64,000 nt of DNA, taken from IMG/VR virus record IMGVR_UViG_3300020576_007701. The stretch is one strand, 5' to 3'. The notes below the pieces were generated by a model. The model saw only the letters and a list, made by a program, of their open reading frames with translations. It searched no databases and was not told the DNA's origin. Positions 44,871-62,786 of this stretch are shown here, piece by piece. Position 1 is the first letter of the stretch. Each line of letters starts with the position of its first letter. Position numbers and translations under genes: made by a program. Source of the stretch: a virus. Lineage: Duplodnaviria > Caudoviricetes.

Positions 44871-44871
44871 T

Positions 44872-45615
44872 ATGAAAAACAAAATTAAAGTAATTACTCC
44901 TTTTTATAATCCAGGAGAATTTTTAGAAAAGTGCGTAGCATCTTTAACAACTCAAAGATATGATAACTTTGAAATTATATTCATAGACGATTGTTCTACA
45001 GATGGCGCTTTTGATAGACTTCCAAAAGAAGATTCACGTGTAACAATTATTAGAAACACAGAAAGAAAAACCGCTTTAGAAAATATACACATGGCCATTA
45101 TGGAACATTGTGAGCCAGATGATATTGTTGCAATAGTAGATGGTGACGATTGGTTGCCCACCAGAAATGTTTTAAGTTTTATAAACGACTACTACAATCA
45201 GCATGATTGCTGGATTACATATGGCCAAGCCTCTTGGACAGACGGAAGAAGAGGTTTCGCTTCTGCTTATACGCCAGAAGAATTTAAAAATGTAAGAAAA
45301 GCACCATATAAAGTATCTCATCTTAGAACTTGGAGAGCTGGCGTTTTCCAAAAGGTCCAAGAACAAGATCCAAACTTTGATAAAATGAGAGATAAAGATG
45401 GAAAGTTTTATTTAATGTCCTATGACACAGCCATCATGTTCTGTATAATGGAAATAGCTGGCTATGAAAAAACAAAGTTTATTGATGAAATTTTATATGT
45501 TTACAACAGAAGCAATCCACTTTCTGAAGATAAAGTTGATCAGGCTTGGCAATGGGCAGTACATCAAGAGGTGAGTAATAAAATGCCTTTAAAACAAATA
45601 GAAACTTACAAATAA
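44872..45615 (+). CDS. GT2 glycosyltransferase
   Basis: ITPFYN, IDDCSTD, VDGDDW, SHLRT. Confidence 0.9.
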   Translation: MKNKIKVITPFYNPGEFLEKCVASLTTQRYDNFEIIFIDDCSTDGAFDRLPKEDSRVTIIRNTERKTALENIHMAIMEHCEPDDIVAIVDGDDWLPTRNVLSFINDYYNQHDCWITYGQASWTDGRRGFASAYTPEEFKNVRKAPYKVSHLRTWRAGVFQKVQEQDPNFDKMRDKDGKFYLMSYDTAIMFCIMEIAGYEKTKFIDEILYVYNRSNPLSEDKVDQAWQWAVHQEVSNKMPLKQIETYK

Positions 45616-45619
45616 TTTA

Positions 45620-45651
45620 TTTGTTTTTTAAAGTCCAAATTACTATATTTT
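45620..45651 (+). promoter_or_regulatory. Host-type promoter
   Basis: TTTG-N20-TATATTTT. Confidence 0.5.
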
Positions 45652-45667
45652 ATTAAAATAATTACAA

Positions 45668-48277
45668 ATGAAAGAAAAAAAAGAGAAAATAGTAATAACT
45701 GGTGGTTTGGGTTATATAGGTACAGAACTTTGTAAAATATATTCTGGGCACGCTAGATATAAAGAAATAGTAGTTATTGATTCTATTTTTAAATCAGAAA
45801 GAGTTTCGCAATTAACAGATTGGGGTATTAAATTTATACAAGCTTCTATTTTAGATGAATCAGTATTAGAAGAGCAACTTAAGGATGCAAATACTATTAT
45901 TCACTTAGCTGGAATTACCGATGTAGCTTATACAAAAACCGAATCAAACGATGCCAAAGATAAGGAAATTAAAAACATTGGAATTGTTGGTACGCAAAAT
46001 GTAATAAAATATGCAAACAAAGAAGCTAAAATTATATTTCCATCCACGCACGTTGTTTATGAGGGGTTCTCTGAAACAAAAAGAGATATTTTAGAAAATG
46101 AAACTCCAAACCCAGTATTAACATACTCTTTAGGTAAAGTACAATCAGAAAATGATTTAAAAAACTCAGGTTTAAACTATGTAATCCTTAGATTAGCCTC
46201 TGTATACGGCTTCTCAACAGATAGTACCAGAATAAATATAATGCCAAACTTGTTTTCAAAAATAGCTTCACAAAATGGAACTATAAAACTTTTTTCAGCA
46301 GGCGTTCAATTAAAGAGCTTGGTTCCATTGTTTGACGTTGTTAGATGCATGCAATTCATGGAAGAAAATAAAAACATAAACAAAGAAATCTTTCATTTGT
46401 CAAAAGAGAATATGACAGTTAAAGAAGTGGCATTGCTTTGCAAAGAAATAAATTCTAAATTAAATATCGTAGAAACAAACGACGAAATTCCAAATCTAGG
46501 TTACACAATCTCAAATCAAAAATTGTTATCAACTGGTTTTAAATTTAGATATAGTATTAAAGAATGTTTAGAAGAAATGATTTCAAAATGGTCCGAAAAA
46601 ATAAAAACTAAAGATCTAGAACATGTTTCAAAAGGCGGAGATGACTATATTGATGAAAGAGGCAGAATATCAAATTATGAATTAACTGAACCAATAAATT
46701 TAATTGGTTATATTGAGTCTAAAGCTGGGACAGTAAGAGCAAATCACTATCACCCAATTCAAGAGCAAAAATGTCTTTTAATAAAAGGACAATTTATAAG
46801 TGTTATTAAAGATCTTTCAAATCCAGATGCTTTAACTGATACAAAAATTATCAATGAAGGAGACATGTCTGTGATAAAACCAAACGTAGCACACACAATG
46901 GTTTTCACAAAAGATTCAATATTTTTAAATTTGGTTAGAGGAGAAAGAGAACACAAAAATTATGGAATTACACATACAATTCCACATGTATTGGTAGATG
47001 AACCAACCAGGGTAAGGCTTCTTGAAAGTTATAAAACTTTTTGTAGAAGTTGTTATGGAGAAAGACTAAAAAGGGTTATTTCTCTTGGAAATTCGCCGCT
47101 TGCTAATAATTTAAAAAACAGCGCAGATGAAGAAAGTGAAACTTATCCTCTAGAAGTAAACTATTGTGAGGATTGTCATAATTGTCAACTAACATGTGTT
47201 GTACCACCTAGAAAAATGTTTGATAATTATCTTTACGTATCTTCAACCGCTGCTTCTTTTAGAAAGCATTTTGAAGATGCGGCAGATACTTATGTAAAAG
47301 AATTTAATTTAAATTCAAGCTCGCTGGTTGTTGATATTGGAAGCAACGATGGAATAGCTCTTAAACCATTAAAGGAAAAAGGAGTCAATGTTGTAGGTGT
47401 GGAACCAGCTAAAAATATAGCAAAATTAGCAAATGAAAATGGGATAGAAACAATCAATGACTATTTTGATAATAATTCAGTTGAAGAAATTTTAAGCAGA
47501 CACGGCAATGCTGATTTAGTAACTGCTTCAAATGTTTTTGCCCATTCTGACGAACTCGTTAATATCACGAAAGATTCTTTTAAACTATTAAAAGAAAACG
47601 GATCTTTTATAGTTGAGGTGCAGTATCTTTTTGACACCATGAATGATTTAACATTTGATAATATTTACCATGAACATGTAAATTATTGGAGTGTTACATC
47701 AATAAACAACTTCTTTAAAAGCTTAGGTTTTTTTGTATATAATGTTGAACACATAAATACACATGGTGGTTCTATAAGGGTTTTTGTTGGAAGAATTGGC
47801 CAAGTATCTTTAAATGAAAATGTAGAAACATTTTTAGAGAAAGAAAAAGCATTTGGTTTATTAAATTTCGATAGATATGAAAAATTTTCACAAGATGTGG
47901 AAGAGCTTAAAAATAATGTTGTATTTAACATGAATAATTTAAGAGATAAATACAAAGTAATTGCTGGGTATGGATCTCCAGCTAAGGCAACAACTTCTCT
48001 TAATTACTTTGGAATAGATCACAAATATATAGATTACATCATAGAGGATAATAAAATGAAAAATGGTAAGTTTATACCAGGTGTAAACATACCGATAAAA
48101 GATAAAGAATATTGTAATCAAAACTTACCAAATATCATTATTGTAATGGCATGGAATTTCTTTGAGGAAATAAAAAAATCAAACCAAGACTTAATTGACA
48201 AGGGTGTAATTTTTATAAACATTAAAGAGTTACAAAACAAAGATTTTATAATAAAAGATAAAGCCATTATAGCTTAA
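45668..48277 (+). CDS. Trifunctional NDP-sugar enzyme: SDR epimerase/reductase + cupin + C-methyltransferase
   Basis: TGGLGYIG/YSLGK; RANHYH..HT; CRSC..CEDC, DIGSNDG, YHEH, HGGS, GYGSPAKA. Confidence 0.85.
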   Translation: MKEKKEKIVITGGLGYIGTELCKIYSGHARYKEIVVIDSIFKSERVSQLTDWGIKFIQASILDESVLEEQLKDANTIIHLAGITDVAYTKTESNDAKDKEIKNIGIVGTQNVIKYANKEAKIIFPSTHVVYEGFSETKRDILENETPNPVLTYSLGKVQSENDLKNSGLNYVILRLASVYGFSTDSTRINIMPNLFSKIASQNGTIKLFSAGVQLKSLVPLFDVVRCMQFMEENKNINKEIFHLSKENMTVKEVALLCKEINSKLNIVETNDEIPNLGYTISNQKLLSTGFKFRYSIKECLEEMISKWSEKIKTKDLEHVSKGGDDYIDERGRISNYELTEPINLIGYIESKAGTVRANHYHPIQEQKCLLIKGQFISVIKDLSNPDALTDTKIINEGDMSVIKPNVAHTMVFTKDSIFLNLVRGEREHKNYGITHTIPHVLVDEPTRVRLLESYKTFCRSCYGERLKRVISLGNSPLANNLKNSADEESETYPLEVNYCEDCHNCQLTCVVPPRKMFDNYLYVSSTAASFRKHFEDAADTYVKEFNLNSSSLVVDIGSNDGIALKPLKEKGVNVVGVEPAKNIAKLANENGIETINDYFDNNSVEEILSRHGNADLVTASNVFAHSDELVNITKDSFKLLKENGSFIVEVQYLFDTMNDLTFDNIYHEHVNYWSVTSINNFFKSLGFFVYNVEHINTHGGSIRVFVGRIGQVSLNENVETFLEKEKAFGLLNFDRYEKFSQDVEELKNNVVFNMNNLRDKYKVIAGYGSPAKATTSLNYFGIDHKYIDYIIEDNKMKNGKFIPGVNIPIKDKEYCNQNLPNIIIVMAWNFFEEIKKSNQDLIDKGVIFINIKELQNKDFIIKDKAIIA

Positions 48278-48278
48278 T

Positions 48279-49052
48279 ATGAAAAAAGAAATAAACCACA
48301 TATCAGTAATAATACCATCTTATAATGTAGAGGCTTATACTGACGCAGCTTTAACTAGTATTATTAACCAAGATTATCCAGATTTTGAAATAGTTTTTAT
48401 TGACGACAACTCAACGGATAGGACATTTGAAATTGCTCAAGAATATGCCGCCAAATTTCCAAATATGAAATGCATTAGAAATGACAAGAGAAAATTTCCT
48501 CTTGAAAATTTTAAAATAGGTGTTGAAAATTCTCAACCTGGCTCTATATGTGTTTTGTGTGATGGCGATGATTATTATAAACACGAAAATGTTTTACATA
48601 GAATAAACAAAGAATATTCTAAGTATGATTGTTGGGTAACTTTTGGTACATATGAACATGTAAACCCTTATTCGGACGTTTCTGCTCACTATCACCCATA
48701 TCCTGATGAAGTCATAGCAAACAATTCTTTTAGGAGCCACAAATGGCTCGCTAGCCATATTAGAACATGTAGAAAAGAATTATTCGAAATGATAAAAAAT
48801 GAAGACTTAATAGATCCAGCCACAAACAACTATTTTGCTTTTAATAGTGATTTAGCAACTATGTGGCCAATGATGGAAATGGCTTCTGGTTTACCAAATA
48901 AAATTAGGTATATACCAGATGTTATGTATTGTTATAATGTTGGAAATCCAATAAGCGAAAATAAAGTTAATCAAAAAGAAATTGATAGAATCGAAGCTTT
49001 AATAAGAAGTTCAAAGCCATACAATCCAATTTTAGAATTATCTAATGCTTAA
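48279..49052 (+). CDS. GT2 glycosyltransferase, paralogue of 44872-45615
   Basis: IIPSYN, IDDNSTD, CDGDDY, SHIRT. Confidence 0.9.
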   Translation: MKKEINHISVIIPSYNVEAYTDAALTSIINQDYPDFEIVFIDDNSTDRTFEIAQEYAAKFPNMKCIRNDKRKFPLENFKIGVENSQPGSICVLCDGDDYYKHENVLHRINKEYSKYDCWVTFGTYEHVNPYSDVSAHYHPYPDEVIANNSFRSHKWLASHIRTCRKELFEMIKNEDLIDPATNNYFAFNSDLATMWPMMEMASGLPNKIRYIPDVMYCYNVGNPISENKVNQKEIDRIEALIRSSKPYNPILELSNA

Positions 49053-49947
49053 AAATATGAGTCAAATAATTGATGTTTTAAATAATAATATTTTTAGTTA
49101 TAAGGAAATTTTTGAAAATTCTGAAATCAAACTTTTAAATAACGATGAATTTGATATTAACTTCATCATTGGATTTAGAGGTAGAAAAGAGTTTTTAATT
49201 CCAATGATAAATGCATTTAATAAAGCTGCGGATTTTTATAAAAATAAATTTCCAAATGAAAATAAAAAGTTTTGCTTAACACTTGTTGAACATAGTTTAA
49301 CGCCAGAAAATAAAGAAATTATAGGAGATAAAGCGAACTATATTTGGACACCAGGTAATAAATCTGAACAGTATAGTAGAAGTTTTTCTTATAACTTTGG
49401 CGTAAAATACTCTAATAAAGCAAAGTATTACATTTTACACGATTTAGATATTCTTATTAAGGAAAATTTTTTTGAGGAAATTTATTTAAATTTAAAATCC
49501 GAGTGTCTTCAAACATATGGCAAAAGAAGAGTTTTATATATGTCTCAAGAGTTGACAAATTCTGTTTTATCTGGCGATGTTGATTTTAACACTTTTGACG
49601 AAAATTATCCTAATATAAATCCACCACAAATACTTGGATCAAAAGGTGGTTCAATTTTGGTTGGACACGATTTGTATTATGAGGTTGGAGGTTTTGATCC
49701 AGAAATATTTTGGGGATATGCGCCAGAAGATCAACTTTTTTGGGATAAAGTACAGACAATTTTAGGTGAAATAGATTATGCTGACAATCCGCCAATTGAT
49801 ATTTTTCATATGTGGCACCCGCCTACACTACATCATTCAAACGCTGATTATTTTCCAATGGAAAAATGCTTTTATGAATTTAGGGCAATGAATAAAAAAG
49901 CCAGAATGAATTTTATAAATTTAAAAAAAGAACTCTTCAAAGATTGA
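49045..49947 (+). CDS. GT-A glycosyltransferase with GT7-like C-terminus
   Basis: HDLD (DxD), GGFDPEIFWGYAPED, HMWH. Confidence 0.8.
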   Translation: MLKNMSQIIDVLNNNIFSYKEIFENSEIKLLNNDEFDINFIIGFRGRKEFLIPMINAFNKAADFYKNKFPNENKKFCLTLVEHSLTPENKEIIGDKANYIWTPGNKSEQYSRSFSYNFGVKYSNKAKYYILHDLDILIKENFFEEIYLNLKSECLQTYGKRRVLYMSQELTNSVLSGDVDFNTFDENYPNINPPQILGSKGGSILVGHDLYYEVGGFDPEIFWGYAPEDQLFWDKVQTILGEIDYADNPPIDIFHMWHPPTLHHSNADYFPMEKCFYEFRAMNKKARMNFINLKKELFKD

Positions 49948-50216
49948 TTATGAGAACACTTAGAAAATATGTAGATATAGATATTAGAGAAACTGTAAAT
50001 GTTGGAATAGAACTTGATTTCAATGAATTAGTTCAAATAATACAACAATGCACTGATAAAGAAAAAGATGAAATTTTACTTGAATTAAAGGGCGGCGGAG
50101 TAATACCAGAAATTCATGGTAGAACAAGGGTTACTTTATTAGATCAAATGAAAATAGATTTTTTCAGAGAAAATTTTAATAAAATTTCAATCGACCAACT
50201 TCAAACACTTGTGTAA
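49944..50216 (+). CDS. Hypothetical protein
   Basis: ~90-aa ORF coupled to both neighbours. Confidence 0.55.
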   Translation: MIMRTLRKYVDIDIRETVNVGIELDFNELVQIIQQCTDKEKDEILLELKGGGVIPEIHGRTRVTLLDQMKIDFFRENFNKISIDQLQTLV

Positions 50217-51103
50217 TGAAAACTAAGACATTTATATTTACAGAAGCTTATAATTGCGGACTTATTTTAAAAAAATGTTTAGAAAGTTTTTTTAAATATC
50301 ATCCAGGTATTACTGTAAACGTATTTGGAACCGCAAAAGATTTTAAAGAACTTGGAAAATTTGACGATGTTGAGTATATTGAATTAAGCGCAGATGAAGA
50401 TTTAAAAGAGTGTTTTAAGCATGGTCATTTAGGCACTGCTCACATAGGTGCAAGAGTAATTAAAGAATTTTCTAAAGATTGCAATTATATAATTCACTTT
50501 GATAGCGATATAATATTTAGAAAAGAATCTCTGTCTTTGTTAAATGAAAAAATTGAAGAGGGTTATGACCTAATTGGTTCTAGGCGTTGTTACAAAAACA
50601 ATATGAACAACCTTGTTTTAGAAGGACTTGAAGATGTTGTGCAAACTTATTTTTTTGCTTTTAATAAAAATAAAATTTATGATTATGATTTCAACACTTT
50701 AAGAAATATGATTGTTGGGTTTTTCAATCCATTGGGGCACGAAATACTTGACTATTTTGATCCTGTTTCATTTGATATTTTGAAAAATAATGGGAAAATT
50801 TATTTCCTTGACACAAATTTAGTTGGCGGTTTATCCGCTGAGGGTAACAGAAAAAACATACACGAAGAATTAAATAGTGATTTTGATTTTGGTACAAATT
50901 TGGTACATTTTGGTGGCATAGGTTCTGGTATGAAATTTTATAAGTTTGGAAATGACAGCGTTCCAGAATCTTATTCCAAGTGGGCCATAAACAGATACGG
51001 CATATATAGTAAAGTAATTTTGGGCTCTGAAAAACAAGACATAGAAATAGATGAAGTAAAAACAGAATTGTTAATCAAAGCATTTAATGAAACAAATAAT
51101 TAA
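50216..51103 (+). CDS. Putative GT-A glycosyltransferase
   Basis: IHFDSDIIF DxD motif, late VHFGG; context. Confidence 0.6.
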   Translation: MKTKTFIFTEAYNCGLILKKCLESFFKYHPGITVNVFGTAKDFKELGKFDDVEYIELSADEDLKECFKHGHLGTAHIGARVIKEFSKDCNYIIHFDSDIIFRKESLSLLNEKIEEGYDLIGSRRCYKNNMNNLVLEGLEDVVQTYFFAFNKNKIYDYDFNTLRNMIVGFFNPLGHEILDYFDPVSFDILKNNGKIYFLDTNLVGGLSAEGNRKNIHEELNSDFDFGTNLVHFGGIGSGMKFYKFGNDSVPESYSKWAINRYGIYSKVILGSEKQDIEIDEVKTELLIKAFNETNN

Positions 51104-51890
51104 TAGCTACACATACCCAGATTGGCCAAATATAGAAATTGAATTTGAAAAGTCAATAGAGTTATTTATAGATGGATTTGATGGGTACAATCCAAACAGT
51201 AATTCATATAAAATTTTACTTGTAAAAGAAGTAGAGGCTATAAGCGGCTTTAAAAGTACAGCAATTGAACATGCTTCAAAATTTGATTTAGTTTTAACTT
51301 ATGACGAGGAAATTATACAAAAATGTGACAATGCTCGTTTTTTTCCTTTCGGAACAACATGGATAAAAAATTACGATTTTTTAAAAGAAAAAAAGTTTCA
51401 AATTTCCCACTTGACTGGCCACAAACAAATTACAAATTGGCATATATTAAGACAAAAAATCCACTATAAACAAGAACTAATTGTCACACCAAGAGATTTT
51501 TATATAAGCCAATATGGCGGAGTTGAAAATGCATTTAACAATAAAATTTTAGGAGAATTTAAAGAGCCTCTTTTCGAATCACAATTCCATATTTGTATAG
51601 AAAATTCTGATCAAAAAAATTTATTTACAGAAAAAACAATAGATTGTCTTATCACAAAAACAGTTCCTATTTTTTGTGGATGTGATAATATAGGTGATTT
51701 TTTTAATGAAAAAGGTTTCATAATTGCAAAGAATGTAAATGACATTATAAAAGAGTGTAATAATTTAACGCCAAACACATATGAAACAATGATGGAGGCT
51801 ATAGATGAAAATTACAATATATGCTTGAAATATGCAGATTCAGTAGGTAATCTTAAAAATACTTTATTAGATATTTTTAAAAATAAATAA
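51087..51890 (+). CDS. GT10-like (alpha-1,3/4-fucosyltransferase family) glycosyltransferase
   Basis: FHICIENS...FTEKTIDC...TVPIFCG. Confidence 0.8.
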   Translation: MKQIINSYTYPDWPNIEIEFEKSIELFIDGFDGYNPNSNSYKILLVKEVEAISGFKSTAIEHASKFDLVLTYDEEIIQKCDNARFFPFGTTWIKNYDFLKEKKFQISHLTGHKQITNWHILRQKIHYKQELIVTPRDFYISQYGGVENAFNNKILGEFKEPLFESQFHICIENSDQKNLFTEKTIDCLITKTVPIFCGCDNIGDFFNEKGFIIAKNVNDIIKECNNLTPNTYETMMEAIDENYNICLKYADSVGNLKNTLLDIFKNK

Positions 51891-51891
51891 T

Positions 51892-52908
51892 TTATTCGTC
51901 GTATAATAATTTTACCATGCTATTAACTGTATCAAAGTTATCTGCGGTGGCTCTACTATTAGGTATTTTTACATTAAAAGTTTCTTCTAAAAAAACTAAA
52001 ACAACTACCATTGAAAAAGAATCAATATAACCACCTCTTATAAGCGATGTTTCATACGTTACATTGCTTATTCTTTTACAAGAACAATCTTCCTCTGGAA
52101 ACATGCAATAAGAATAGTGACCCTGGTTACTTCCAAAATGTTTTTTTATATAATTTAAAATTATTTTTTTTTCATTTTTTAACTTTGTTTTTGGTTGTAA
52201 AATTTTTGGTTTTACTTCTTTGTCCACTTGATCGTCTATATTTTTTATATTAATTTCATATGGGAAAAGTGTATTAAATAATTTTTTATAAAAATCGTGC
52301 CCCTTCATGGTGTTTATATAAAACTTTTGTGGGGATCTACACTTATATACATCTAAATGTTCATTTATTTTAATGTGGTTTATATCTTCCTTAGAGTCTT
52401 TGTATAGCAAATCATCTTCAGAACCCTCCTCAATGCTATTAGCGGCAACAATCTTGAAAGACAATTGTTTGTGTTTTTTCTTTAATAATTTTACCAATTT
52501 AAGAAGTCCTTTTAAAGGAATTTCTTTGTGAGTCATAAAGGTAAAAATTACATTATCCCCAGATGTATTATTTAAAAGTTTAAAAAAACGTTTAGCAATA
52601 CTTTCTTTGTATCCAGTCCATCCACACCCATCGTCACCTCTTAATACACCGTGTTCATGATGTTTGTAACCTAATTTAGCGTATGGATATTCGTCACAAT
52701 CTGGCGGATCTATTCCGTTTTTTATATTGTTTTCTATGTGCCATTCATAACCATTTTCAACTATATCACAAACAATATCTATATTGCTATTAGCCCAATC
52801 AAATATATAGCCATATCCCAAAAAATTAATACGTGCGTTGTTATTGTTTAATAATTCAGCAACAACGCAGCAATCTCCTATACTAATAATGTGGTTAACT
52901 TCTTTCAT
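51892..52908 (-). CDS. DUF1796-like papain-fold domain fused to a C-terminal acyl carrier protein
   Basis: IISIGDCCVVA...R...IFDW N-terminus; GYIDSFSM...LEETFNVKI...NFDTVNSM ACP signature. Confidence 0.7.
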   Translation of the reverse strand: MKEVNHIISIGDCCVVAELLNNNNARINFLGYGYIFDWANSNIDIVCDIVENGYEWHIENNIKNGIDPPDCDEYPYAKLGYKHHEHGVLRGDDGCGWTGYKESIAKRFFKLLNNTSGDNVIFTFMTHKEIPLKGLLKLVKLLKKKHKQLSFKIVAANSIEEGSEDDLLYKDSKEDINHIKINEHLDVYKCRSPQKFYINTMKGHDFYKKLFNTLFPYEINIKNIDDQVDKEVKPKILQPKTKLKNEKKIILNYIKKHFGSNQGHYSYCMFPEEDCSCKRISNVTYETSLIRGGYIDSFSMVVVLVFLEETFNVKIPNSRATADNFDTVNSMVKLLYDE

Positions 52909-52934
52909 TTTTTATTTATAAATATAGTTCAAAA

Positions 52935-52966
52935 TTTGGTTTTTTATAAATAAAAAATTATATTTC
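52935..52966 (+). promoter_or_regulatory. Host-type promoter
   Basis: TTTG-N20-TATATTTC. Confidence 0.5.
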
Positions 52967-52982
52967 TTCTAATAACACAGAA

Positions 52983-53789
52983 ATGGATAAAAAATATAAA
53001 GTCAACATAAAGCTTCTTGGCGGCATAGGAAACAACCTATTTCAAATAGCTTGTGCTTATGCATATTCTTTAAAACACAATTGCGAATTAGTCCTTTTTA
53101 AGGAAAAATTTGGCGCTACACATGGTTCCTTTGATTCATATTCTTCAAATGTATTGAGGAATATCAATTTTTCAGACCCAAACACTATAAAGCAATTATC
53201 TCAATACCAGGAGCCATTTTTCAATTACCAAGAAATACCAGGCTTTAATGTGGATTTGCAATTAAATGGTTATTTTCAAACAGAGCTTTATTTTAAAGAA
53301 TACTCACAAGAAATACTTGACCTGTTTTCTTATCCAGATAATTTTATAGAGTCAATAAAAAAAGAATACTCTGACCTTTTAAATCTAAACGCTTGCTCTA
53401 TGCATGTAAGACGTGGCGATTACGTTCATCAACCAGAAAATCATCCAACTCAAAGTATGAATTATTATATGAAAGCGATAAAACAAATGCCTTCAGATTC
53501 TATATTTTTAATTTTTTCAGATGATATTGAATGGTGTAAACAGAACTTCCCAGACCTTCCAGAAAAATTTTACTTTATAGAAGGCAATAAAGATTTTGAA
53601 GATTTATTTCTAATGACACAATGTAAAAATAATATTATTTGTAACTCTAGTTTTAGTTGGTGGGGAGCTTGGTTAAATAAAAACCAAGATAAAAAAATAA
53701 TTGCCCCATTATATACTAGGTGGGTAGGACAAGCTTTATCTAATTTGGACACAAAGGATGTAATTCCAAAAAACTGGATTCAACTATAA
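52983..53789 (+). CDS. GT11 alpha-1,2-fucosyl/colitosyl-transferase
   Basis: GGIGNNLFQ, GYFQ, HVRRGDY, FSDDIEWC, NSSFSWWGAWL. Confidence 0.92.
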   Translation: MDKKYKVNIKLLGGIGNNLFQIACAYAYSLKHNCELVLFKEKFGATHGSFDSYSSNVLRNINFSDPNTIKQLSQYQEPFFNYQEIPGFNVDLQLNGYFQTELYFKEYSQEILDLFSYPDNFIESIKKEYSDLLNLNACSMHVRRGDYVHQPENHPTQSMNYYMKAIKQMPSDSIFLIFSDDIEWCKQNFPDLPEKFYFIEGNKDFEDLFLMTQCKNNIICNSSFSWWGAWLNKNQDKKIIAPLYTRWVGQALSNLDTKDVIPKNWIQL

Positions 53790-53799
53790 TAAAAAAAAT

Positions 53800-54717
53800 A
53801 TGAAATATAAAAAAATATTAATAACTGGCGGATCTGGAATGGTTGGTATGTCTTTGAAAAAAATAATCCCAGAAGCTGTATATATTTCTTCCCAAGATTA
53901 CAATTTAACTTCAGAAATAGAAGTTGAAAAAATGATGAATGAAATAAAACCAGACTGCATAATACATTTGGCAGCAAAAGTTGGCGGCATATTTGATAAC
54001 ATGCAAAAGCCAGCAGAGTATTATACAGAAAATGTTTTAATGAACACAATATTGGTTGACAAGGCTTATAAACATGGCGTTAAAAGACTTATAGCGATGT
54101 TAAGCACATGTATATACCCAGACAAAAATGAAACTTATCCGCTTGTAGAAGGTGACTTACATAAAGGGCCGCCAGCTGAAACTAACTTTTCTTATGGTTA
54201 CGCCAAGAGATCTCTAGCTGTTCAAATCGACTCATACAACAAACAATATGGAACAAAATATCAATATTTAACGCCATGTAATTTATATGGAGAATTTGAT
54301 AAATATGGATCTAATAGCCACTTTATAGCTGCACTTATAAAGAAAATACATGTTTCTGTAAAAAATGGAGATGACAAAATAGTGTTATTTGGAGATGGAA
54401 CTCCACTAAGACAGTTTATGTATTCAGACGATTTAGCTTTTGTAATAAAAGAGTGTTTGGACAAGAACATTTATGAAAATATGAATGTTGCCACTGAAGA
54501 AATTTATAATATAAAACAAATGGCCTTAATCGCTCTTGAGGCTTGCCAGGCTGAAAATTTAACCATACATTTTGATACTAACTCTCCAAATGGACAATTT
54601 AGAAAAGATGTGTCGGTGTCAAAACTAAAAAAAATAATACCCCACTTCAATCCTATAAATTTAAGTGACGGCATAAAAAAAACATACAAATATCTTTTAG
54701 ATAACAATAAGTTATGA
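53800..54717 (+). CDS. GDP-L-fucose synthase family (Fcl/ColC-type epimerase-reductase)
   Basis: TGGSGMVG, HLAAKVGG, LSTCIYP, YGYAK, PCNLYG, GDGTPLRQF. Confidence 0.9.
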   Translation: MKYKKILITGGSGMVGMSLKKIIPEAVYISSQDYNLTSEIEVEKMMNEIKPDCIIHLAAKVGGIFDNMQKPAEYYTENVLMNTILVDKAYKHGVKRLIAMLSTCIYPDKNETYPLVEGDLHKGPPAETNFSYGYAKRSLAVQIDSYNKQYGTKYQYLTPCNLYGEFDKYGSNSHFIAALIKKIHVSVKNGDDKIVLFGDGTPLRQFMYSDDLAFVIKECLDKNIYENMNVATEEIYNIKQMALIALEACQAENLTIHFDTNSPNGQFRKDVSVSKLKKIIPHFNPINLSDGIKKTYKYLLDNNKL

Positions 54718-56165
54718 AATTTCATAAACAAGAATTTTTATACGACAAAGAAAAAGGCGTAAGAGGTAGTTGTTTTCCAACTGTTCTAGCTTGTATATTA
54801 GATTTGGAACTTGGGCAGGTCCCAAATTTTCAACTATCTTATTGGACACATGAGGAAGAGCAAAATATAATTAAATGTTTATTGCTTAGATATTGTAATG
54901 GTTCTTATGAAAACGCTAAAAAATACCAACAAGACAACTTTGATAATCACAAATCTCTTATGCATAATCAGTGGGCTAATACTATGGATTTTTGGCTGGC
55001 ATCAAAAGGTTACGTTGAAGAATATATTCTTTTAGAAGAAATTGAAGAATGGGTTAAAAAAAACCCAGAAACCCCATATCTAGTAAAGGGTGATTCCAGT
55101 AGAGGTGTCGGTCATGTTGTAATATACAAAAATGGAAAAATGATACACGATCCACACCCATCTAATGAAGGCCTTGTTTCATTAAGAGAAGAACCATACT
55201 CGTATTTAAAAAAAATAACAAATATAAAATATGTCAATTCTCACATAGATGAATTTAATTATATTTTTTCCTCTAATATTGATGCTAATTTAATGAAGCA
55301 AAAAAACGAAATGTCATTTTTATACACATCAACTTTTAGTGAATTTGATATTATGTTTAACGAGTATGACAAAATATTTGTAAAAAAAATAAATTTTATT
55401 TCAGGTATGGGTGTCATAGATTCTATTGCTCAAGATAGAAGCATTGAACAAAAAATGAATAAAGATGGCGCAAAAAAAGCGTCGCTTTTAAATGATATCG
55501 AATTTGTAACAGATCAGGAAATTAACGATCTTAGAGGTAGTCAACATGTATATAAATACACATTTTCAAATAGCGCTAAATTGCTAAAGGAAGGTAAATT
55601 AAAATTCATTAACCCTAAATACAAAGACTATAAAGCAAACGAACTTCTTTTATCTAGTTTGAATACAAAAAATAAAAAAGTAGTTGCAATTAATGGGCGT
55701 AATTTAATTAAGATTCCAGAACGAAACCAAACGTTTCAACCATTAATAGACCACTTGATTAAAGAGGGTTTTTTTGTTGTAAATCTTACTATTAACCCTC
55801 CTGGTTTTAACTATCCAAAAGATTCCTATTACGAGATAACAAATCCAAGTTTAAGTTATAGCGATATGGTGTCTTTTTTTCTATTGTCTGAAACAGTTTT
55901 ATCTGTATGTGATTCGGGTGGAGTTAATGTTCATATTTTAACAGAGGCTAATTTTATATTTCTTGGCCCTGGCGGATGGCTAGATAATCCAGAGTTTGGT
56001 CATGAAGGTACAAGTCTTTTATCTGCGAGAAAAGAAAATACAAATTTCTATACTGAACATTTATTAAATTTTTCACTTGATGAGTTGGTAAATAAAATTA
56101 AACAAATTCCAGGTCGTAATAGACATTCATATTTTTTTAATGAAAACAAGATTGAATTTATATAA
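54714..56165 (+). CDS. Two-domain protein: Cys/His/Asp peptidase-like N-terminus + GT9-like C-terminus
   Basis: GSCFPTVLA...GHVVIY...HDPHP; C-terminal SVCDSGG..H. Confidence 0.45.
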   Translation: MKFHKQEFLYDKEKGVRGSCFPTVLACILDLELGQVPNFQLSYWTHEEEQNIIKCLLLRYCNGSYENAKKYQQDNFDNHKSLMHNQWANTMDFWLASKGYVEEYILLEEIEEWVKKNPETPYLVKGDSSRGVGHVVIYKNGKMIHDPHPSNEGLVSLREEPYSYLKKITNIKYVNSHIDEFNYIFSSNIDANLMKQKNEMSFLYTSTFSEFDIMFNEYDKIFVKKINFISGMGVIDSIAQDRSIEQKMNKDGAKKASLLNDIEFVTDQEINDLRGSQHVYKYTFSNSAKLLKEGKLKFINPKYKDYKANELLLSSLNTKNKKVVAINGRNLIKIPERNQTFQPLIDHLIKEGFFVVNLTINPPGFNYPKDSYYEITNPSLSYSDMVSFFLLSETVLSVCDSGGVNVHILTEANFIFLGPGGWLDNPEFGHEGTSLLSARKENTNFYTEHLLNFSLDELVNKIKQIPGRNRHSYFFNENKIEFI

Positions 56166-56215
56166 TTTACTTTATTTTGCTGTTAGCTATGATTATGTTT
56201 AAAAAAAACATATTC

Positions 56216-57409
56216 ATGGCAACAAACTTAAAAAATAAACGTGAGCGTATAACTCTTGTAAAAGACACAATAGACAAAAAAGATATTGACCATTTAATTA
56301 ATTGGTTAAAAACATACCCAAAACTTACAAAGGGCGAAAAAACAATTGAGTTTGAACAAGCTTGGTCAAAGTGGATTGGATGTAAATACTCAGTGTTTGT
56401 AAACTCAGGTTCTTCCGCAAATCTTTTAATGCTCTATGCATTAATAGAGCTTTATAAATTAAGAAATGGAAAGGTTGTTGTTCCATCTCTGGCTTGGGCC
56501 ACTGATTTAGCACCAGTGATTCAACTCGGTTTTCAACCACTTATTGTTGATTGCAATTTAGCGGACTTATCTGTTGACTTAGAACATTTGGAATATATTT
56601 TTATGAACGAACAACCTTCGGCAATGATTTTAGTTTCAGTTCTTGGTTTATCTCCAGATATGGATTCTGTTGTAAAACTTTGTAAAAAATATGGCGTTAT
56701 TTTACTTGAAGATAATTGTGAATCTCAAGGAACAATGTATAAAGGAAAAAAACTTGGAAATTTTGGCCTTATGTCTAGTTATTCAACATATTTTGGGCAT
56801 ACAATGAGCACAATTGAGGGCGGCATGATTTCAACAAATGATAGAGAAGTATACAATATGTTAAAACAACTTAGAAGTCATGGTTGGGATAGAGATTTAG
56901 ATGCCACAAGACAAGCTGAATTGAGAGAACAATGGGGTATAGATGACTTCGCAGCTTTGTACACTTTTTATGTGCCTGGTTTTAATGTTAGATCTACAGA
57001 TTTGCAAGCTGTAATAGGTTTAAAACAGCTTGAAAAAGTTGACGATATGATTGCTCAAAGAAATAAAAACTTTGAAATTTTTAAACAAAGGTTATCACCT
57101 TACACATGGTTCCCAACTGAGCAAGAAGAAAGTTTTACTGCAAGTTTTTGTATTCCAATAATAGCTGAAACAAAAGAAGAAAAAGATAGAATAGTAAAAA
57201 AATTAATAGAAAACAATGTTGAGTGTAGACCTTTAATATGTGGTTCAATGGGAACTCAACCATTTTTTGTAAAACATTTTGGTAGAGTTGCTTTAGAAAC
57301 AGTTACAAGAGTTGATGAGTGTGGTATGTATATTCCAAATCATCCACACCTTACAAAAGAAGAAATAGATCATATGTGTAATTGCATACTTAGCGCAATA
57401 GAAGAATAA
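56216..57409 (+). CDS. colD: DegT/DnrJ-fold PLP enzyme, ColD-type GDP-4-keto-6-deoxymannose 3-dehydratase
   Basis: VNSGSSANL, LLEDNCES, YFGHTMSTIEGG with His at the usual Schiff-base Lys position; start reassigned to ATG 56216. Confidence 0.75.
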   Translation: MATNLKNKRERITLVKDTIDKKDIDHLINWLKTYPKLTKGEKTIEFEQAWSKWIGCKYSVFVNSGSSANLLMLYALIELYKLRNGKVVVPSLAWATDLAPVIQLGFQPLIVDCNLADLSVDLEHLEYIFMNEQPSAMILVSVLGLSPDMDSVVKLCKKYGVILLEDNCESQGTMYKGKKLGNFGLMSSYSTYFGHTMSTIEGGMISTNDREVYNMLKQLRSHGWDRDLDATRQAELREQWGIDDFAALYTFYVPGFNVRSTDLQAVIGLKQLEKVDDMIAQRNKNFEIFKQRLSPYTWFPTEQEESFTASFCIPIIAETKEEKDRIVKKLIENNVECRPLICGSMGTQPFFVKHFGRVALETVTRVDECGMYIPNHPHLTKEEIDHMCNCILSAIEE

Positions 57410-57410
57410 T

Positions 57411-57647
57411 ATGAAGATAAATAAAATCGAAACATATCAAGATTTGCCTAAATATGGTAAATATGTGCTTGTAAGCGGAATCGACAAAGGAATGTATGAT
57501 GTTAGAAGGTGGCACGTTTGCGAAATGAATGACTTAGAAGATGGGTTAGATTATAGAGATAAAGGCCATTTTTTTTGGCTTACTGAAAAAGGAACTAAAA
57601 TAGACGAAGTTACACATTGGTGTGAATTACCAAATATACCACAGTAA
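57411..57647 (+). CDS. DUF551-like small phage protein
   Basis: LP...VLV N-terminus, VTHWCELP C-terminus. Confidence 0.6.
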   Translation: MKINKIETYQDLPKYGKYVLVSGIDKGMYDVRRWHVCEMNDLEDGLDYRDKGHFFWLTEKGTKIDEVTHWCELPNIPQ

Positions 57648-57658
57648 AACTATACAAA

Positions 57659-58084
57659 ATGTTAACTATAAAAGAGTGGCTTTTAAAAAATAATCCAACT
57701 TTTAAAATAGATTGGAATATATTGGGTTGGCAAAACAATCCAAATTTTTTCGGAGATCAAAAAGAATGGAACAATGTGCTTCTCACAAAAATTAACGAAA
57801 TTTCAGCACATATACATATGGCCACATTATTAGGCGGTGCTGACACAATAGAAGTGCACCCAGATAATATGCATTTCATAGAAAGTTTTGACTACTATAA
57901 TGCAACAACAAAAACTATAGGGTTTAGATATTCCGTAATTGTAGATAATCTTATTTCTAAAAATACAATCAATGTGTATTTAAGTGAACAAGCTATAAGA
58001 AATTTTTATAAATTAAATAAAAAAGGGTTAGATATAGATTTTAAAAATACTTATGGGGTTATTACATTAATAAATGGAAATTAA
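57659..58084 (+). CDS. Stand-alone paralogue of the MCP A-domain region
   Basis: NNPNFFGDQKEWNNVLLTKINEISAHIHMATLLGGA vs MCP NNANFFGTQKDWNQTLITRINEISAQIHKATLRGGA (26/36 identical by hand count). Confidence 0.88.
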   Translation: MLTIKEWLLKNNPTFKIDWNILGWQNNPNFFGDQKEWNNVLLTKINEISAHIHMATLLGGADTIEVHPDNMHFIESFDYYNATTKTIGFRYSVIVDNLISKNTINVYLSEQAIRNFYKLNKKGLDIDFKNTYGVITLINGN

Positions 58085-58117
58085 AAAACGGTTTTAATAA
58101 CTGGAATACCTGGCCAG
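58074..58117 (+). pseudogene. Frameshifted remnant of the original gmd 5' end
   Basis: ATG GAA ATT AAA AAA then, one base out of frame, TVLITGIPGQ. Confidence 0.7.
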
Positions 58118-58147
58118 AAATTTTACACTATTTATAATAAAAATATT

Positions 58148-58984
58148 ATGAAAGAAGAAAACAAAAAAACAGGTATTAAAAAATGTAAACAGTGTTTTAA
58201 AGAATTTCAAATTAACTTGCGAAACAAAAGAAGTGCCAATAAAATATTTTGTTCATCAACATGTGCCAAAAAAAATAACGGCAAAAACAATAAAGGTAAA
58301 AAACGTTCTTTAAAATATAAAAGCATGATGAGTGAAAAAACTTCAGGGAAAAATAATGGTTTTTTCGGAAAGACACATTCTAAAAAATCAGTGCAAAAAA
58401 TGAGCAGTTCCAGTTTGTGGCAAGAAGACAAATTTAAATATTGTAATCTGAAAAACAAAGAAAAAGAGGTTTTAGATGGATTAATGCTTAGTGATGGTTG
58501 TTTGTCAGAAAAATCCAGAATATCAGCTAGACTAACTTTTGGATTTAAATTTAAAGAAACTTGTGAAGAAATATTTAAAACAATAAGTTCGTTAAATTTT
58601 TCTCCAATTTGGCAAAGCGAACAAACAAAATGTTGGCACACAAAATCAAATATGTATCATGATTTATTAGTTGAAAACAAAAGATGGTATCCACAAAAAG
58701 AAAAAATTGTACCATTAGATGTCTTGATTACTAAAACTTCTTGTTATTGGTGGTTTATAGGAGATGGCTATAATATTGATGGAAATGTGTATTTGTGCAC
58801 AGACTCCTTTTCTAAAAAAGATAATGTTTTTTTGATTAACAAATTAAAAGAGAACGGATTTAATCCTTCATTAACAAGCACAAATAGAATCAGATTCAAC
58901 AAAAAAGAAACAATACTTTTTTTAGAGTGGATAAAACCTGAAGGTGAAATAATGGAACAATATAAATATAAATGGAAAATATAA
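58148..58984 (+). CDS. LAGLIDADG-type homing endonuclease with Zn ribbon and NUMOD3
   Basis: [44 protein letters not shown]. Confidence 0.8.
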
Positions 58985-60000
58985 AACAAAAAAAGATAGC
59001 CCTTTGCTTCGGAATAACGGGACAAGACGGCTCGTATCTAGCAGAACTTCTACTTGAGAAAGGGTATGAAGTGCATGGAATTATCAGAAGATCTAGCAGT
59101 TTCAATACTGAAAGACTTGATCATATTTTTGACAAGCTAATATTGCATTATGGCGACGTAACGGACCCAGCTAGTACGACAAATTTAATAGCTACCATAA
59201 AGCCAGATGAAATTTATAACCTAGCCGCTCAATCACATGTTAAAGTTTCTTTTGAACAACCTTATTACACTGGAATGGTAGATGCTCTCGGAACACTTAC
59301 CATTCTTGAGGCTATGCGCATTCATTGCCCACAATCAAAATTTTATCAAGCCTCTACTTCTGAATTGTACGGTGGTATGACCTATAACATGCCACCAAAT
59401 GGCTACACTGAAGAGTCTGTATTTCACCCAAGAAGCCCTTATGGAGTTGCAAAAATTTATGGCTATTGGGCTGTTAAAAATTATCGTGAAGCTTATAATA
59501 TTTTTGCTTGTAACGGAATCTTATTTAACCATGAAAGCCCAAGACGTGGCGGCACCTTCGTAACAAAAAAAGTAATAAACAACCTTGTTGAAATTAAACA
59601 GGGTAAAAGAGAGGTATTGCATATCGGTAATTTGGATTCTAAGAGGGATTGGGGATATGCAAAAGATTATGTTGAAGGAATGTGGCTTATGCTGCAAAGA
59701 GATGTCCCAGAGGATTTTGTATTAGCTACAAACGAAGCACACTCAGTTCGTGAATTGATAGAATTAACAGCGGAGTCAATTGGTTATAAGATAGAGTGGA
59801 GAGGGTCTGGGCTAGACGAAAAAGGTTATGATGAAATAACTGGAAAATTACTTGTAGAGATTGATCAAAAATATTTCAGACCATCAGAGGTTGAGTTTCT
59901 TCTTGGTGATTCATCTAAAGCTAAGACAGATTTAGGTTGGGAGCCAAAGGTTAAGTTTAAAGACCTAGTTAGGCTAATGGTTTTGCATGAAATGTCTTAA
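58972..60000 (+). CDS. gmd: GDP-mannose 4,6-dehydratase
   Basis: [50 protein letters not shown]. Confidence 0.97.
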
Positions 60001-60084
60001 AGTGTCTAGTTTTTGTCTGGGTTTTTAAAAAAAATTTGCAAAATATAAAAAAAGTTTATAACTTACACCCAAAAAAATAGAACT

Positions 60085-61650
60085 ATGAAAATAGAAGAGC
60101 TAACCGATAGTGACATTTCAAAGGTAAAAGAAATTTACACCAATCAATCCTTGACTTGGGATGATAAAACTGGAAAACTAAAAACACTATTTGGAGTAAA
60201 ATCTGAAAGAACCGTTAGACACTGGTTAGTCAAATTAGGTTTTAAAGAAAAAATGGCCGAAGAATCTGCAGATTATATGGCTGCTAAAAAGAAAAAGCTA
60301 GATAAGACAAAAAAGCGCTATATTGTTTCTTGGGCGCAAAACAATACACCACTTCATATTCCTTTTATGAGAAATATGGAAGCTTATGCTAAACACCTTA
60401 ACGCCTCGATACATGTAGTTGCTGGCAGATATAAAAACCCAACTTCAATTTTTCAAGATCGTGATGAAGAATATTGGGACACAGAATTGTTGGAAAAAAA
60501 TTATTTAGACGCAGCTCAGCATGATATTCATAAATTTTTAACTATTCTTGGTAATGTTAAAACGCAGCCTACGGCTATAAATCCACTTGAAGGTTTTGAA
60601 AGTTTTACAGCTGATAAATCTTGTATTGTTGGCCACCCAAAAGTTCAATTAAAAATGGTTCCAGTTTTAGAAAGTTACGTTCAAAAGATGATGGTAACTA
60701 CTGGAGCTTGTACAGAAAAAAATTATACAGATTCAAAAGCTGGAAAAAGAGGCGAATTTAATCACACACTTGGTTTTGTTATTGTTGAAATAAAAAACAA
60801 TGAAATATTTTTTCTTAGGCAAGTAACTGCTGACATCAATGGTAATTTTAACGACCTATACTACAATGTTACAAACAAAAAAGTAAAAACTAACAACAAA
60901 ATTGCGAGTTTGATCATGGGAGATATACATGTTGGAGACCATGACAAACAAGTTATTGATTCTACTTTAAATGTGCTGTGTAAAAAATTGCATCCAGACA
61001 ATATTGTAATGCACGATATTTTTAATGGACACTCTATTTCGCACCACGAACTAAATGACATCTTCCTTCAATACCAAAGAGATGTAGATGGAACAAACTC
61101 TTTACAAAGAGAATTTGATGAAATGTTGGTGTGGTTAGAACAATTTAAAAAACACAATGTGGTTATTGTAAAAAGTAACCATGATGATGTGGTAGACAAA
61201 TGGTTAAGACATAGCGATGCCAAACACATTAAGGCTAGTAAAAATTATTTATTGTTTACAGAATTATCTTCTATAATTATGCAAAACAAAGCGCCAAAAG
61301 GAATTGTGCCATATATTATAAATCAAAAATTTCCAAAAATTAAATGTCTTGGAAGAGACGATAGTTTTAGAGTAAAAGAATTTGAGTTGGGTGTACATGG
61401 CGATATTGGAGCTTCTGGAAGCAGAGGTTCAATTGGACAATACAGAAGACTAAATACAAAAATAGTAACTGGGCACAGTCATCAACCAGTCAGATTAGAT
61501 GGTTCTCTTTCAGTTGGAACTAGTACTAAGTTGAGGGTAAACTATAACAAGGGTCAAAGTGCCTGGTTGAATAGCCACGTGATTATACATGAGGATGGAA
61601 AAGCACAACATATAAATTTCATAAAGGGATGTTTTACCACCTTTAAATAA
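60085..61650 (+). CDS. Calcineurin-like metallophosphoesterase with N-terminal HTH (possibly T5 A1-like)
   Basis: GDIH, HDIFNG, SNHD, HGD, GHSH metal-binding motifs. Confidence 0.75.
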   Translation: MKIEELTDSDISKVKEIYTNQSLTWDDKTGKLKTLFGVKSERTVRHWLVKLGFKEKMAEESADYMAAKKKKLDKTKKRYIVSWAQNNTPLHIPFMRNMEAYAKHLNASIHVVAGRYKNPTSIFQDRDEEYWDTELLEKNYLDAAQHDIHKFLTILGNVKTQPTAINPLEGFESFTADKSCIVGHPKVQLKMVPVLESYVQKMMVTTGACTEKNYTDSKAGKRGEFNHTLGFVIVEIKNNEIFFLRQVTADINGNFNDLYYNVTNKKVKTNNKIASLIMGDIHVGDHDKQVIDSTLNVLCKKLHPDNIVMHDIFNGHSISHHELNDIFLQYQRDVDGTNSLQREFDEMLVWLEQFKKHNVVIVKSNHDDVVDKWLRHSDAKHIKASKNYLLFTELSSIIMQNKAPKGIVPYIINQKFPKIKCLGRDDSFRVKEFELGVHGDIGASGSRGSIGQYRRLNTKIVTGHSHQPVRLDGSLSVGTSTKLRVNYNKGQSAWLNSHVIIHEDGKAQHINFIKGCFTTFK

Positions 61651-62704
61651 AATTTAGTTTTTCAGTCACACCTTCATTATACTTAATTGTTAAAAGAGAA
61701 ATATTGTGCTCCTTGCAATATCTCTCTTTTATTTTGTCGTTAATTTTTCTATTTTTAAAACCTTCGATACCACCAAAATATTCTATAGGTTTATAATGTT
61801 GCATACCATTGTACTCAATGCATAAATTTTGTTTTGGAAGATAAAAATCGAAAGGTAAAGCTAATATATTTTTGCAATCCGCAAATTTATATTGAGAAAT
61901 ATATTCAATACCATTATTTTCAAGAAAGGTACGTATTTGAACTTCACCTGTTGATTCACCACAAGCTGGACATCCATTTCCATTTTTGTGATTATTAGGA
62001 GTTTGGCTAAATTCGCCATGATCTGGGCAAACAATAATTATTTTAGTATGCGCATTAATGTAATTCATTTTTGAATAATCATATTTTTTTCCATGAAACT
62101 CAGAAAAATATTTTAATATTTTTTCTTTTGTTAATTTTTCATTACCATAACACTTCTTGCAGCCTTGACCTTGTTTATGATTATTAAGTGTTTGTTGAAA
62201 CTCACCGTGTTCTTTGCAAATAATAGTAATTTTTTTATTTGTAATAACAGAATCCACTTTTGAATAATCATATTTATTGCTGTGTGTAATATTGCATTCG
62301 TTAATTACCTCCTGAAGTGTTAATTTTTTTCCTGCACATTTAGGACATCCACTTCCATTTTTATGCATACTAGGACTTTGTTCAAAAATACCATGTGTTT
62401 TACAAATTATTTTAATCTTCACATTATCACTGATATATTTTATATTTGAATAATCGTATTTTTTACCATGAACATCTACAAATTGTAATATTACTTTTTC
62501 TTTATCTAATTTATTGTAAATGCATTTAGGGCACCCATTTCCTCTTTTGTGATTACAAGGCAATTGTTCAAATTCGCCATGTTCTTTACATATAACTTTA
62601 ACTTTAGTTCTAGCATTTACATAGTTCACAAGATCATATGAATATTTTTCTCCATGAATTTTTTCAGCTGCTAAAATAAATTCATTATTTTTTTTGTTTT
62701 TCAT
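61643..62704 (-). CDS. Endonuclease with four Zn-ribbon repeats (DUF723-like) and Vsr-like C-terminus
   Basis: 4x H..KY.Y...C..HG.F.Q...H..G.GC..C; LPFDFY...IEYNGMQH; start reassigned to 62704. Confidence 0.8.
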   Translation of the reverse strand: MKNKKNNEFILAAEKIHGEKYSYDLVNYVNARTKVKVICKEHGEFEQLPCNHKRGNGCPKCIYNKLDKEKVILQFVDVHGKKYDYSNIKYISDNVKIKIICKTHGIFEQSPSMHKNGSGCPKCAGKKLTLQEVINECNITHSNKYDYSKVDSVITNKKITIICKEHGEFQQTLNNHKQGQGCKKCYGNEKLTKEKILKYFSEFHGKKYDYSKMNYINAHTKIIIVCPDHGEFSQTPNNHKNGNGCPACGESTGEVQIRTFLENNGIEYISQYKFADCKNILALPFDFYLPKQNLCIEYNGMQHYKPIEYFGGIEGFKNRKINDKIKERYCKEHNISLLTIKYNEGVTEKLNFI

Positions 62705-62786
62705 AAAAAATTTTTTATATTTTATAAATAGTAGAAAAAATGTTATTATACGATAATTTTTTAAAAGGCTAATAAGCAACAAAAAA

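Follow-up and report, generated by a model that had tools for sequence, protein, structure and literature searches.

The window, by which we mean the whole 64-kb stretch of viral DNA analysed here, holds at positions 57659-58084 (+ strand) an open reading frame (ORF) with an ATG start that encodes a free-standing A-domain protein of 141 aa, an assignment drawn from its match to the phage's own major capsid protein (MCP), a family profile, an AF2 model, fold matches, intact homologues and dN/dS values. The gene is preceded by a DegT/DnrJ/EryC1-type sugar aminotransferase gene (DegT; 56177-57409, +), recognised by PF01041 matches on its orthologues at loci L001, L002 and L013, to which it is 71-88% identical, and by a DUF551-like gene of 78 aa (57411-57647, +) whose PF04448 match (E 4e-4) lies just under the cut-off. 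It is followed by a LAGLIDADG homing endonuclease gene with NUMOD3 (58148-58984, +; PF03161 E 2e-15, PF07460; phrog_11023) and by a gene for GDP-mannose 4,6-dehydratase (Gmd; 58972-60000, +), which was identified by blastn to annotated phage gmd genes and is 88-91% identical to its L001 and L105 orthologues. Over 56177-60000 the window sequence recurs without any variant in contigs from four river-metagenome runs (two studies), and these contigs bridge the A-domain gene and the endonuclease. The phage's MCP, a 552-aa protein of the Gp23 (T4) type (PF07068 E 7e-73; phrog_138 "major head protein"), is encoded at 26793-28451 (-) and is the full-length homologue of the 141-aa ORF.

The endonuclease sits in the 5' end of gmd (58085-58984, 58972-59060). 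Upstream of it a fossil gmd start, MEIKK, is still readable: the segment 58085-58147 (+) reads ATGGAAATTAAAAAA and then, one base out of frame, TVLITGIPGQ, matching the L001 gmd start MKNKKTALIAGITGQ. The insertion point is the conserved GITGQDG nucleotide-binding motif, and the working gmd uses a new start that overlaps the endonuclease stop. The genes around it form a large glycan operon (43658-60000) with two GT2 glycosyltransferases, a GT10 and a GT11 fucosyltransferase-like enzyme, Gmd, a GDP-fucose-synthase-like epimerase, the DegT aminotransferase and an 869-aa epimerase/C-methyltransferase fusion; the glycan operons of relatives additionally carry a carbamoyltransferase and more methyltransferases. 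Beyond the operon, the minus strand at 61643-62782 encodes a 379-aa protein with four or five HGxFxQ...GxGCPxC zinc-ribbon-like repeats followed by a C-terminal domain, and its L013 counterpart has DUF723 matches; it is possibly another mobile nuclease-type gene. A promoter and terminator scan of 52800-61800 returned fewer sites than were found in shuffles.

By pairwise BLASTP, residues 9-81 of the ORF align to MCP 376-448 with 32 identities over 73 positions (E 3e-19). A tblastn search of all six frames of the 64-kb window with the 141-aa query returned the MCP at E 3e-17 and no other real match. Side-matches in tblastn fell over a 1972-aa ORF at 349-6267 (-), which may encode a repetitive fibre-like protein; there DATTETVG recurs in overlapping plus-strand frames near 2822-2875 and 5180-5233. 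The family profile (146 members) proved colinear with MCP 380-550 of 552 (E 2e-39) and included the last strand (YGVITLIN vs YGVIYIDN); within the 153-kb record from which the window comes, the MCP is the only other match to this profile. The ending G-V-I-x-hydrophobic-x-N is confined in this genome to the MCP and the 141-aa ORF, and here it is therefore simply the MCP's own final strand. The original prediction had reported 26/36 identity over MCP 393-428, a figure that a hand count reproduced exactly, and a continuation at GFRYSV/GSRYVV, which is real; the profile carries the similarity further, to the MCP C-terminus.

Three parts of the MCP have no counterpart in the 141-aa protein: residues 1-375, a loop of some 16 residues that follows position 452, and residues ~492-535. 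The last of these segments aligns to AGIYYAPYVAL...GFKTRYG of T4 gp23, and from HK97 topology we infer that it comprises the strands returning to the P-domain. Because residues 1-375 and ~492-535 are both missing, what is present is the A-domain portion alone, and the absence of N-arm, E-loop and P-domain, which had been claimed from the first reading, is supported. Judged from the alignments, the protein corresponds to the final 170 residues of the MCP minus the P-domain excursion. The MCP itself aligns over residues 314-532 to the T4 gp23 PDB chains 5VF3/6UZC. As for PF07068, the homology of the 141-aa protein to Gp23 is significant (BLASTP E 3e-19; profile E 2e-39); the ORF itself has no Pfam match at E 0.01 and stays short of the Gp23 threshold, and the complete shell-forming HK97 fold, with N-arm, E-loop, P-domain with spine helix and A-domain, is absent from it.

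Structure prediction of the protein alone, as the original prediction had suggested, gave an HK97 A-domain fold (AF2, pLDDT 92.6, pTM 0.86). The input to this model was a 146-row alignment; an earlier six-sequence input had yielded an unusable pLDDT of 44. The long helix, short helix, central sheet and C-terminal closing strand that define the HK97 A-domain fold are all present in the model. When it was compared with ~48,000 PDB representatives, the top 50 matches were all HK97-fold capsid or encapsulin chains except 2PK8. The best matches were to jumbo phage S6 (Z 11.4), T4 gp23 (Z 10.8; 128 residues at 3.1 Å, chain residues 303-521 and thus the C-terminal part only) and phage P1 (Z 9.9), with weaker ones to gp24 (Z 7.7) and HK97 gp5 (Z 7.4; chain residues 219-383). 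The exception, PF0899 (2PK8), is a 94-residue free-standing A-domain protein that aligned over 89 of its 94 residues (Z 6.9). Foldseek returned the same families, and in the ESM Atlas the model matched a Gp23 cluster (TM 0.79, 127 residues at 2.4 Å); the Atlas's own model of the 141-aa protein is poor. At the sequence level, the A1 profile had no significant match to PDB sequences, 2PK8 included. Taken together, the predicted structure and its matches support well the label "A-domain only", with exact boundaries inferred from topology, and sequence, profile and fold evidence agree on a free-standing A-domain paralogue unable to build a shell. A complex prediction of full-length MCP with the 141-aa protein scored 0.00 in a run without controls and weighs neither way.

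A word-indexed search recovered five free-standing homologues of 133-141 aa with 44-60% identity to the ORF. Pairwise Nei-Gojobori estimates gave dN/dS values of 0.24-0.41 with dS near saturation. In the closest pair (window vs L001) the A-domain gene has a dN/dS of 0.29, against 0.07 (DegT), 0.05 (Gmd) and 0.05 (a 521-aa neighbour), and the corresponding protein identities are 60%, 87%, 91% and 79%; non-synonymous change in the A-domain gene is thus 3-4 times faster than in neighbour genes. The values of about 0.3, together with the intact frames in relatives, demonstrate that the gene is under purifying selection. Pseudogenisation in relatives, which the original prediction had named as grounds for abandoning its proposal, was not what we saw: the gene is intact in at least five divergent relatives and has been lost from one close relative. 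On these sequence comparisons, the 141-aa ORF is a real gene and neither a recent fragment nor a pseudogene.

We examined the position of the gene in relatives. It adjoins DegT, or the end of the upstream gene, in L001, L002/L003, L013/L014, L007 and L008. Its start and the DegT stop share bases in L001 (TAATG), abut in L002 and overlap by 8 nt in L008; in L013, too, the start overlaps or abuts the DegT stop. L001 has a second overlap, between the gmd start and the stop codon of the A-domain gene. Two DegT groups can be told apart, {window, L001, L105} and {L002, L013, L008}, with 71-76% identity between them, and the A-domain gene is present in both. In L105, whose DegT is 88% identical to that of the window, the A-domain gene is absent and DegT overlaps Gmd directly. 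The most parsimonious account has the A-domain gene inserted behind DegT long ago and later lost from L105; the sugar genes evidently function without it. The DegT-Gmd junction in L105 and the occurrence of most of the family outside sugar operons indicate that the location in a sugar operon is probably incidental. That the gene stands between sugar-nucleotide genes, DegT and Gmd, is correct, as had been pointed out, and the same two observations make the emphasis on a place "inside the sugar operon" misleading.

The DUF551-like gene that separates DegT from the A-domain gene in the window was not found there in L001, L002 or L013. Since it occupies this place in no inspected relative, the DegT-gmd interval looks like an insertion hot spot. 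The LAGLIDADG endonuclease was not found at this site in L001, L013 or L105, and both of these flanking genes are missing at L001, L002/L003, L013/L014, L007 and L008 alike. We also considered that an MCP fragment might have hitch-hiked with the homing endonuclease, and this was ruled out, because L001, L002 and L013 keep the A-domain gene behind DegT without an endonuclease.

When 1.84 billion cluster representatives were searched exhaustively with a profile, the 141-aa protein turned out to belong to a much wider family: 411 clusters matched at E ≤ 1e-3, of which 205 at E ≤ 1e-10. Among the 150 matches listed, nearly all are 110-260 aa long, 149 have a Met start at the position equivalent to MCP 375-386, and P0118 is the only recognisable full-length MCP. 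The possibility that the members are MCPs truncated at contig edges was ruled out for those inspected: in all but one of the 150 listed, the initial Met coincides with the onset of homology, and the eight members inspected lie inside long contigs. Pfam matches were obtained for 33 of 146 members, all to Gp23, and neither Pfam nor PHROGs holds a dedicated family for these mini-proteins.

The members of ~165-255 aa that we checked are complete genes within long contigs in a neighbourhood other than that of the window, namely among small genes between RNase HII/DUF2828 and DnaJ/ClpP. Four such loci (L012, L015, L016 and L017) represent a second large-phage lineage with a conserved block of Hc1 histone-like, RNase HII, DUF2828/DUF7788, DnaJ and ClpP genes, in which the A-domain mini-gene lies within the Hc1-to-ClpP block; in L012 a release-factor-like gene is added. 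In the window phage's 153-kb record, about half of a genome, neither DnaJ nor DUF2828 families were found, and hence no second copy near them. No sugar enzymes were found in the four other family contexts inspected. One member lies 6 kb from its own MCP (L026), and one adjoins a nucleoside deoxyribosyltransferase. Fusions to Gmd and to dCMP deaminase occur in one member each, and a Portal_T4 match in two; the fusions and Portal_T4 matches are possibly gene-calling artefacts. In a soil metagenome phage with contigs up to 336 kb, P0016 (L010 8001-9206; 401 aa) consists of three tandem A-domain copies and adjoins two T4_baseplate genes.

The carriers are uncultured T4-like jumbo phages of 300-360 kb. 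Complete IMG/VR genomes of the phage group measure 320-360 kb and have terminal repeats; the window's 153-kb record is rated 52% complete. The C-terminal 253 residues of the MCP are 92-100% identical in at least 120 clusters (including loci L023-L101), and these near-identical MCP clusters, complete 320-360 kb genomes included, mark a very abundant uncultured jumbo T4-like group. One of the MCP clusters falls in a Bacteroidia bin; among cultured phages, the closest MCPs belong to Flavobacterium phage immuto and Rhodothermus phage RM378. In five of seven complete genomes the MCP is the sole match to the family profile, and the mini-protein family is therefore accessory; the other two have a weaker second match each, in frames of 378 and 251 aa.

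A tree of 135 aligned columns (FastTree, LG+gamma), rooted on the immuto and RM378 MCPs, placed 144 of 145 small proteins in one clade (support 0.79). This clade is sister to one MCP subclade of the phage group (node support 1.0), and the window's own MCP falls in the other subclade (0.98). The topology gives moderate support, the alignment being short, to the view that the family stems from a single old derivation from the clade's MCP and not from a recent copy of the window's MCP. One further protein, P0149 (169 aa; ENA contigs up to 7 kb), is 65% identical to window MCP 355-490 and groups with the window's MCP subclade outside the main mini-protein clade; it may be a capsid-fragment gene that arose independently and more recently, or else an MCP that is truncated.

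A column-by-column comparison of the MCP consensus with 144 small proteins revealed which residues have been kept. In the W-D-Y-x-G turn, W19, D20, Y21 and G23 carry the MCP residue at frequencies of 0.74-0.99, and in the long A-domain helix and the turn after it (ORF residues 34-61) the MCP residue is found at 0.75-0.99 at most positions, many of the kept ones being polar (Q, D, N, Q, T, T, N, S). An invariant core from W37 to E65 was likewise seen among the five homologues of 133-141 aa. In the strand 63-66 the MCP residues are not retained, and the second helix (68-75), nearly invariant in MCPs, carries them in the small proteins at 0.25 or less except at the leading proline 68. The two main A-domain helices have been described in encapsulins as the interfaces between neighbouring facet subunits (PMC8346489). 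The pattern of conservation suggests that the 141-aa protein retains one capsomer-forming face and has lost the other.

No lattice, dispensability, fast evolution and the retention of one MCP surface together make a soluble, monovalent mimic the most economical reading. We propose, with a probability of roughly 35%, that the 141-aa protein is a decoy or sponge for a host immune sensor that responds to unassembled MCP. According to recent work, several Avs families, and Dsr1 as well, reportedly grip the penton- and hexon-forming face of the A-domain. The 141-aa protein would present one capsomer-forming face of the MCP while being unable to polymerise, and would act by competitive binding to whatever reads that face, the preferred ligand being the host sensor of unassembled MCP. 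An A-domain that lacks the P-domain and the E-loop could engage such sensors while failing to make them assemble, and this would blunt MCP-triggered abortive infection; the place behind DegT would be a historical insertion site with no functional link. The selective retention of the capsomer-forming helix is consistent with this proposal, and the gene resembles counter-defence genes in being accessory, fast-evolving and set in non-structural neighbourhoods. Both roles suggested in the original prediction, a capsid mimic for host sensors and a modulator of capsomer assembly, would be compatible with the accessory distribution, the fast evolution and the retained helix. On the other hand, a fragment that binds a sensor could trigger it rather than block it, the kept helix residues could be merely fold-critical, and the faster evolution may reflect relaxed constraint only. 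Furthermore, the tight and apparently translationally coupled linkage to DegT in both sub-lineages is left unexplained by a decoy. That the A-domain mini-protein family of jumbo T4-like phages consists of decoys or shields against Avs7/8/10 and Dsr1-like receptors is an extension that we put forward tentatively.

The retained helix face might instead bind the phage's own MCP, or the near-identical MCP of a co-infecting rival, and so modulate capsid assembly, a role that we regard as possible, if rather doubtful. With the opposite face lost, the protein would cap or hold MCP monomers, whether as a holdase against premature or aberrant capsomers, as a shield of the face from host sensors, or as a dominant-negative competitor poison. 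One A-domain face kept and the other lost is indeed what would be expected of a chain terminator, and the C-terminal part of the MCP is so conserved that one binder could suit many phages. The sister relationship of the family to the MCP subclade other than the window's would suit a weapon against relatives, and some members, such as that of L026, lie near virion genes. Against this, the protein is not needed for assembly, being absent from most complete genomes and from L105, and its gene stands outside the structural module.

It has been previously reported that the Family 4 'A-domain encapsulins' of archaea are encoded in operons with the enzyme gene first and the A-domain protein gene next (PMC8346489), the gene order seen behind DegT. 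By analogy, the 141-aa protein could be an enzyme partner, an oligomer in complex with the upstream DegT that would stabilise or organise sugar-nucleotide synthesis. The overlapping or abutting DegT stop in L001, L002, L008 and L013, a linkage that spans DegT identities of 71-88%, speaks for such a complex, as do the single members fused to Gmd or dCMP deaminase, the one beside a nucleoside deoxyribosyltransferase, and the extent of the PF0899 alignment (2PK8; 89/94 residues, Z 6.9). However, the DegT-Gmd junction of L105 is intact without the A-domain gene, the four other inspected family contexts are devoid of sugar enzymes, DUF1884 matches none of the 146 members, and the fusions are single cases that may be artefacts of gene calling; we therefore consider an enzyme partner unlikely.

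Still less probable is a minor virion component, that is, a decoration, plug or vertex-associated protein docking through A-domain-like contacts: homology to the shell protein, the member with three tandem A-domains (contig up to 336 kb), which has T4-type baseplate genes next to it, and the Portal_T4 match in two members would suit it, but the window's gene is accessory, fast-evolving and outside the structural module. It is very improbable that the gene is a leftover without function from a partial duplication of the MCP, perhaps carried along with the homing endonuclease, since despite the LAGLIDADG gene directly downstream and the loss in one relative, endonuclease-free relatives keep the gene at the same place, the frame is intact in all relatives found (dN/dS 0.24-0.41, dS saturated), and the family comprises more than 400 clusters with a well-defined fold.

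Among known systems, the closest in sequence are the Gp23 MCPs (PF07068; T4 gp23 5VF3/6UZC/7VS5), which share with the 141-aa protein the same A-domain fold and, in the window's own MCP, a homologous C-terminal stretch of 170 residues. Like the vertex protein gp24 (1YUE), it is an MCP paralogue kept in the same genome. In contrast to both, it is a quarter as long and lacks the N-arm, the E-loop, the insertion domain, the spine helix and the P-domain strands, and its gene is accessory, fast-evolving and outside the head module. Without these lattice elements, the protein cannot tile a shell or fill a vertex, and at 141 aa, with neither P-domain nor E-loop, it does not belong to the gp24-type vertex proteins. 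A second full-length, gp24-like Gp23 match was not found in the 153-kb record (~52% complete).

The Family 4 'A-domain encapsulins' (DUF1884/PF08967; PF0899, 2PK8) are known from Thermococci and Rhodothermus, and self-assembly or enzyme binding has been proposed as their function (Andreas and Giessen 2021, PMC8346489). The 141-aa protein resembles them in consisting of nothing but an HK97 A-domain and, in the window's relatives, in having an enzyme gene immediately upstream. It differs in that it is phage-encoded and not cellular, is separately derived from a T4-type MCP, and is ~40% longer; PF08967 matches none of the 146 members at E 0.01, which places the phage proteins outside DUF1884 by sequence. 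Their linkage to an enzyme is not general either: the two-gene unit of enzyme and A-domain protein involves DegT in the window's relatives, and is absent from L105, and the four other contexts inspected are different neighbourhoods. A follow-up paper on the Family 4 A-domain proteins was not found in our literature search.

A third comparison is with MCP sensors and counter-sensing phage proteins (Avs7/8/10, Dsr1, CapRel, Lit/Gol), with which the 141-aa protein would have in common the presentation of the A-domain face, should the decoy proposal hold; with counter-defence genes it shares an accessory and fast-evolving profile. To our knowledge, no decoy derived from a fragment of a phage's own MCP has been demonstrated to date. 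If the decoy proposal is correct, the protein would define a new counter-defence class based on mimicry of the phage's own structural protein. The retained helix coincides both with the capsomer interface described for encapsulins (PMC8346489) and with the face gripped, by report, by immune receptors, which makes the 141-aa protein a candidate for hiding or mimicking the phage's most conserved and most sensed protein.

A targeted literature search returned no description of phage-encoded Gp23-derived A-domain proteins, and until now HK97 A-domains that stand alone were on record only in cells, as the Family 4 encapsulins. In the present family, a truncation of that kind has arisen from a T4-type phage MCP and spread to more than 400 clusters in uncultured giant phages, and the analysis of the window adds the size of the family, support for a single origin, its accessory status and its face-specific conservation. 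Should the protein bind MCP, it would be a naturally occurring tool for manipulating how capsomers assemble in very large capsids; an outcome of sensor binding or of MCP binding would, either way, inform the role of the archaeal A-domain proteins.
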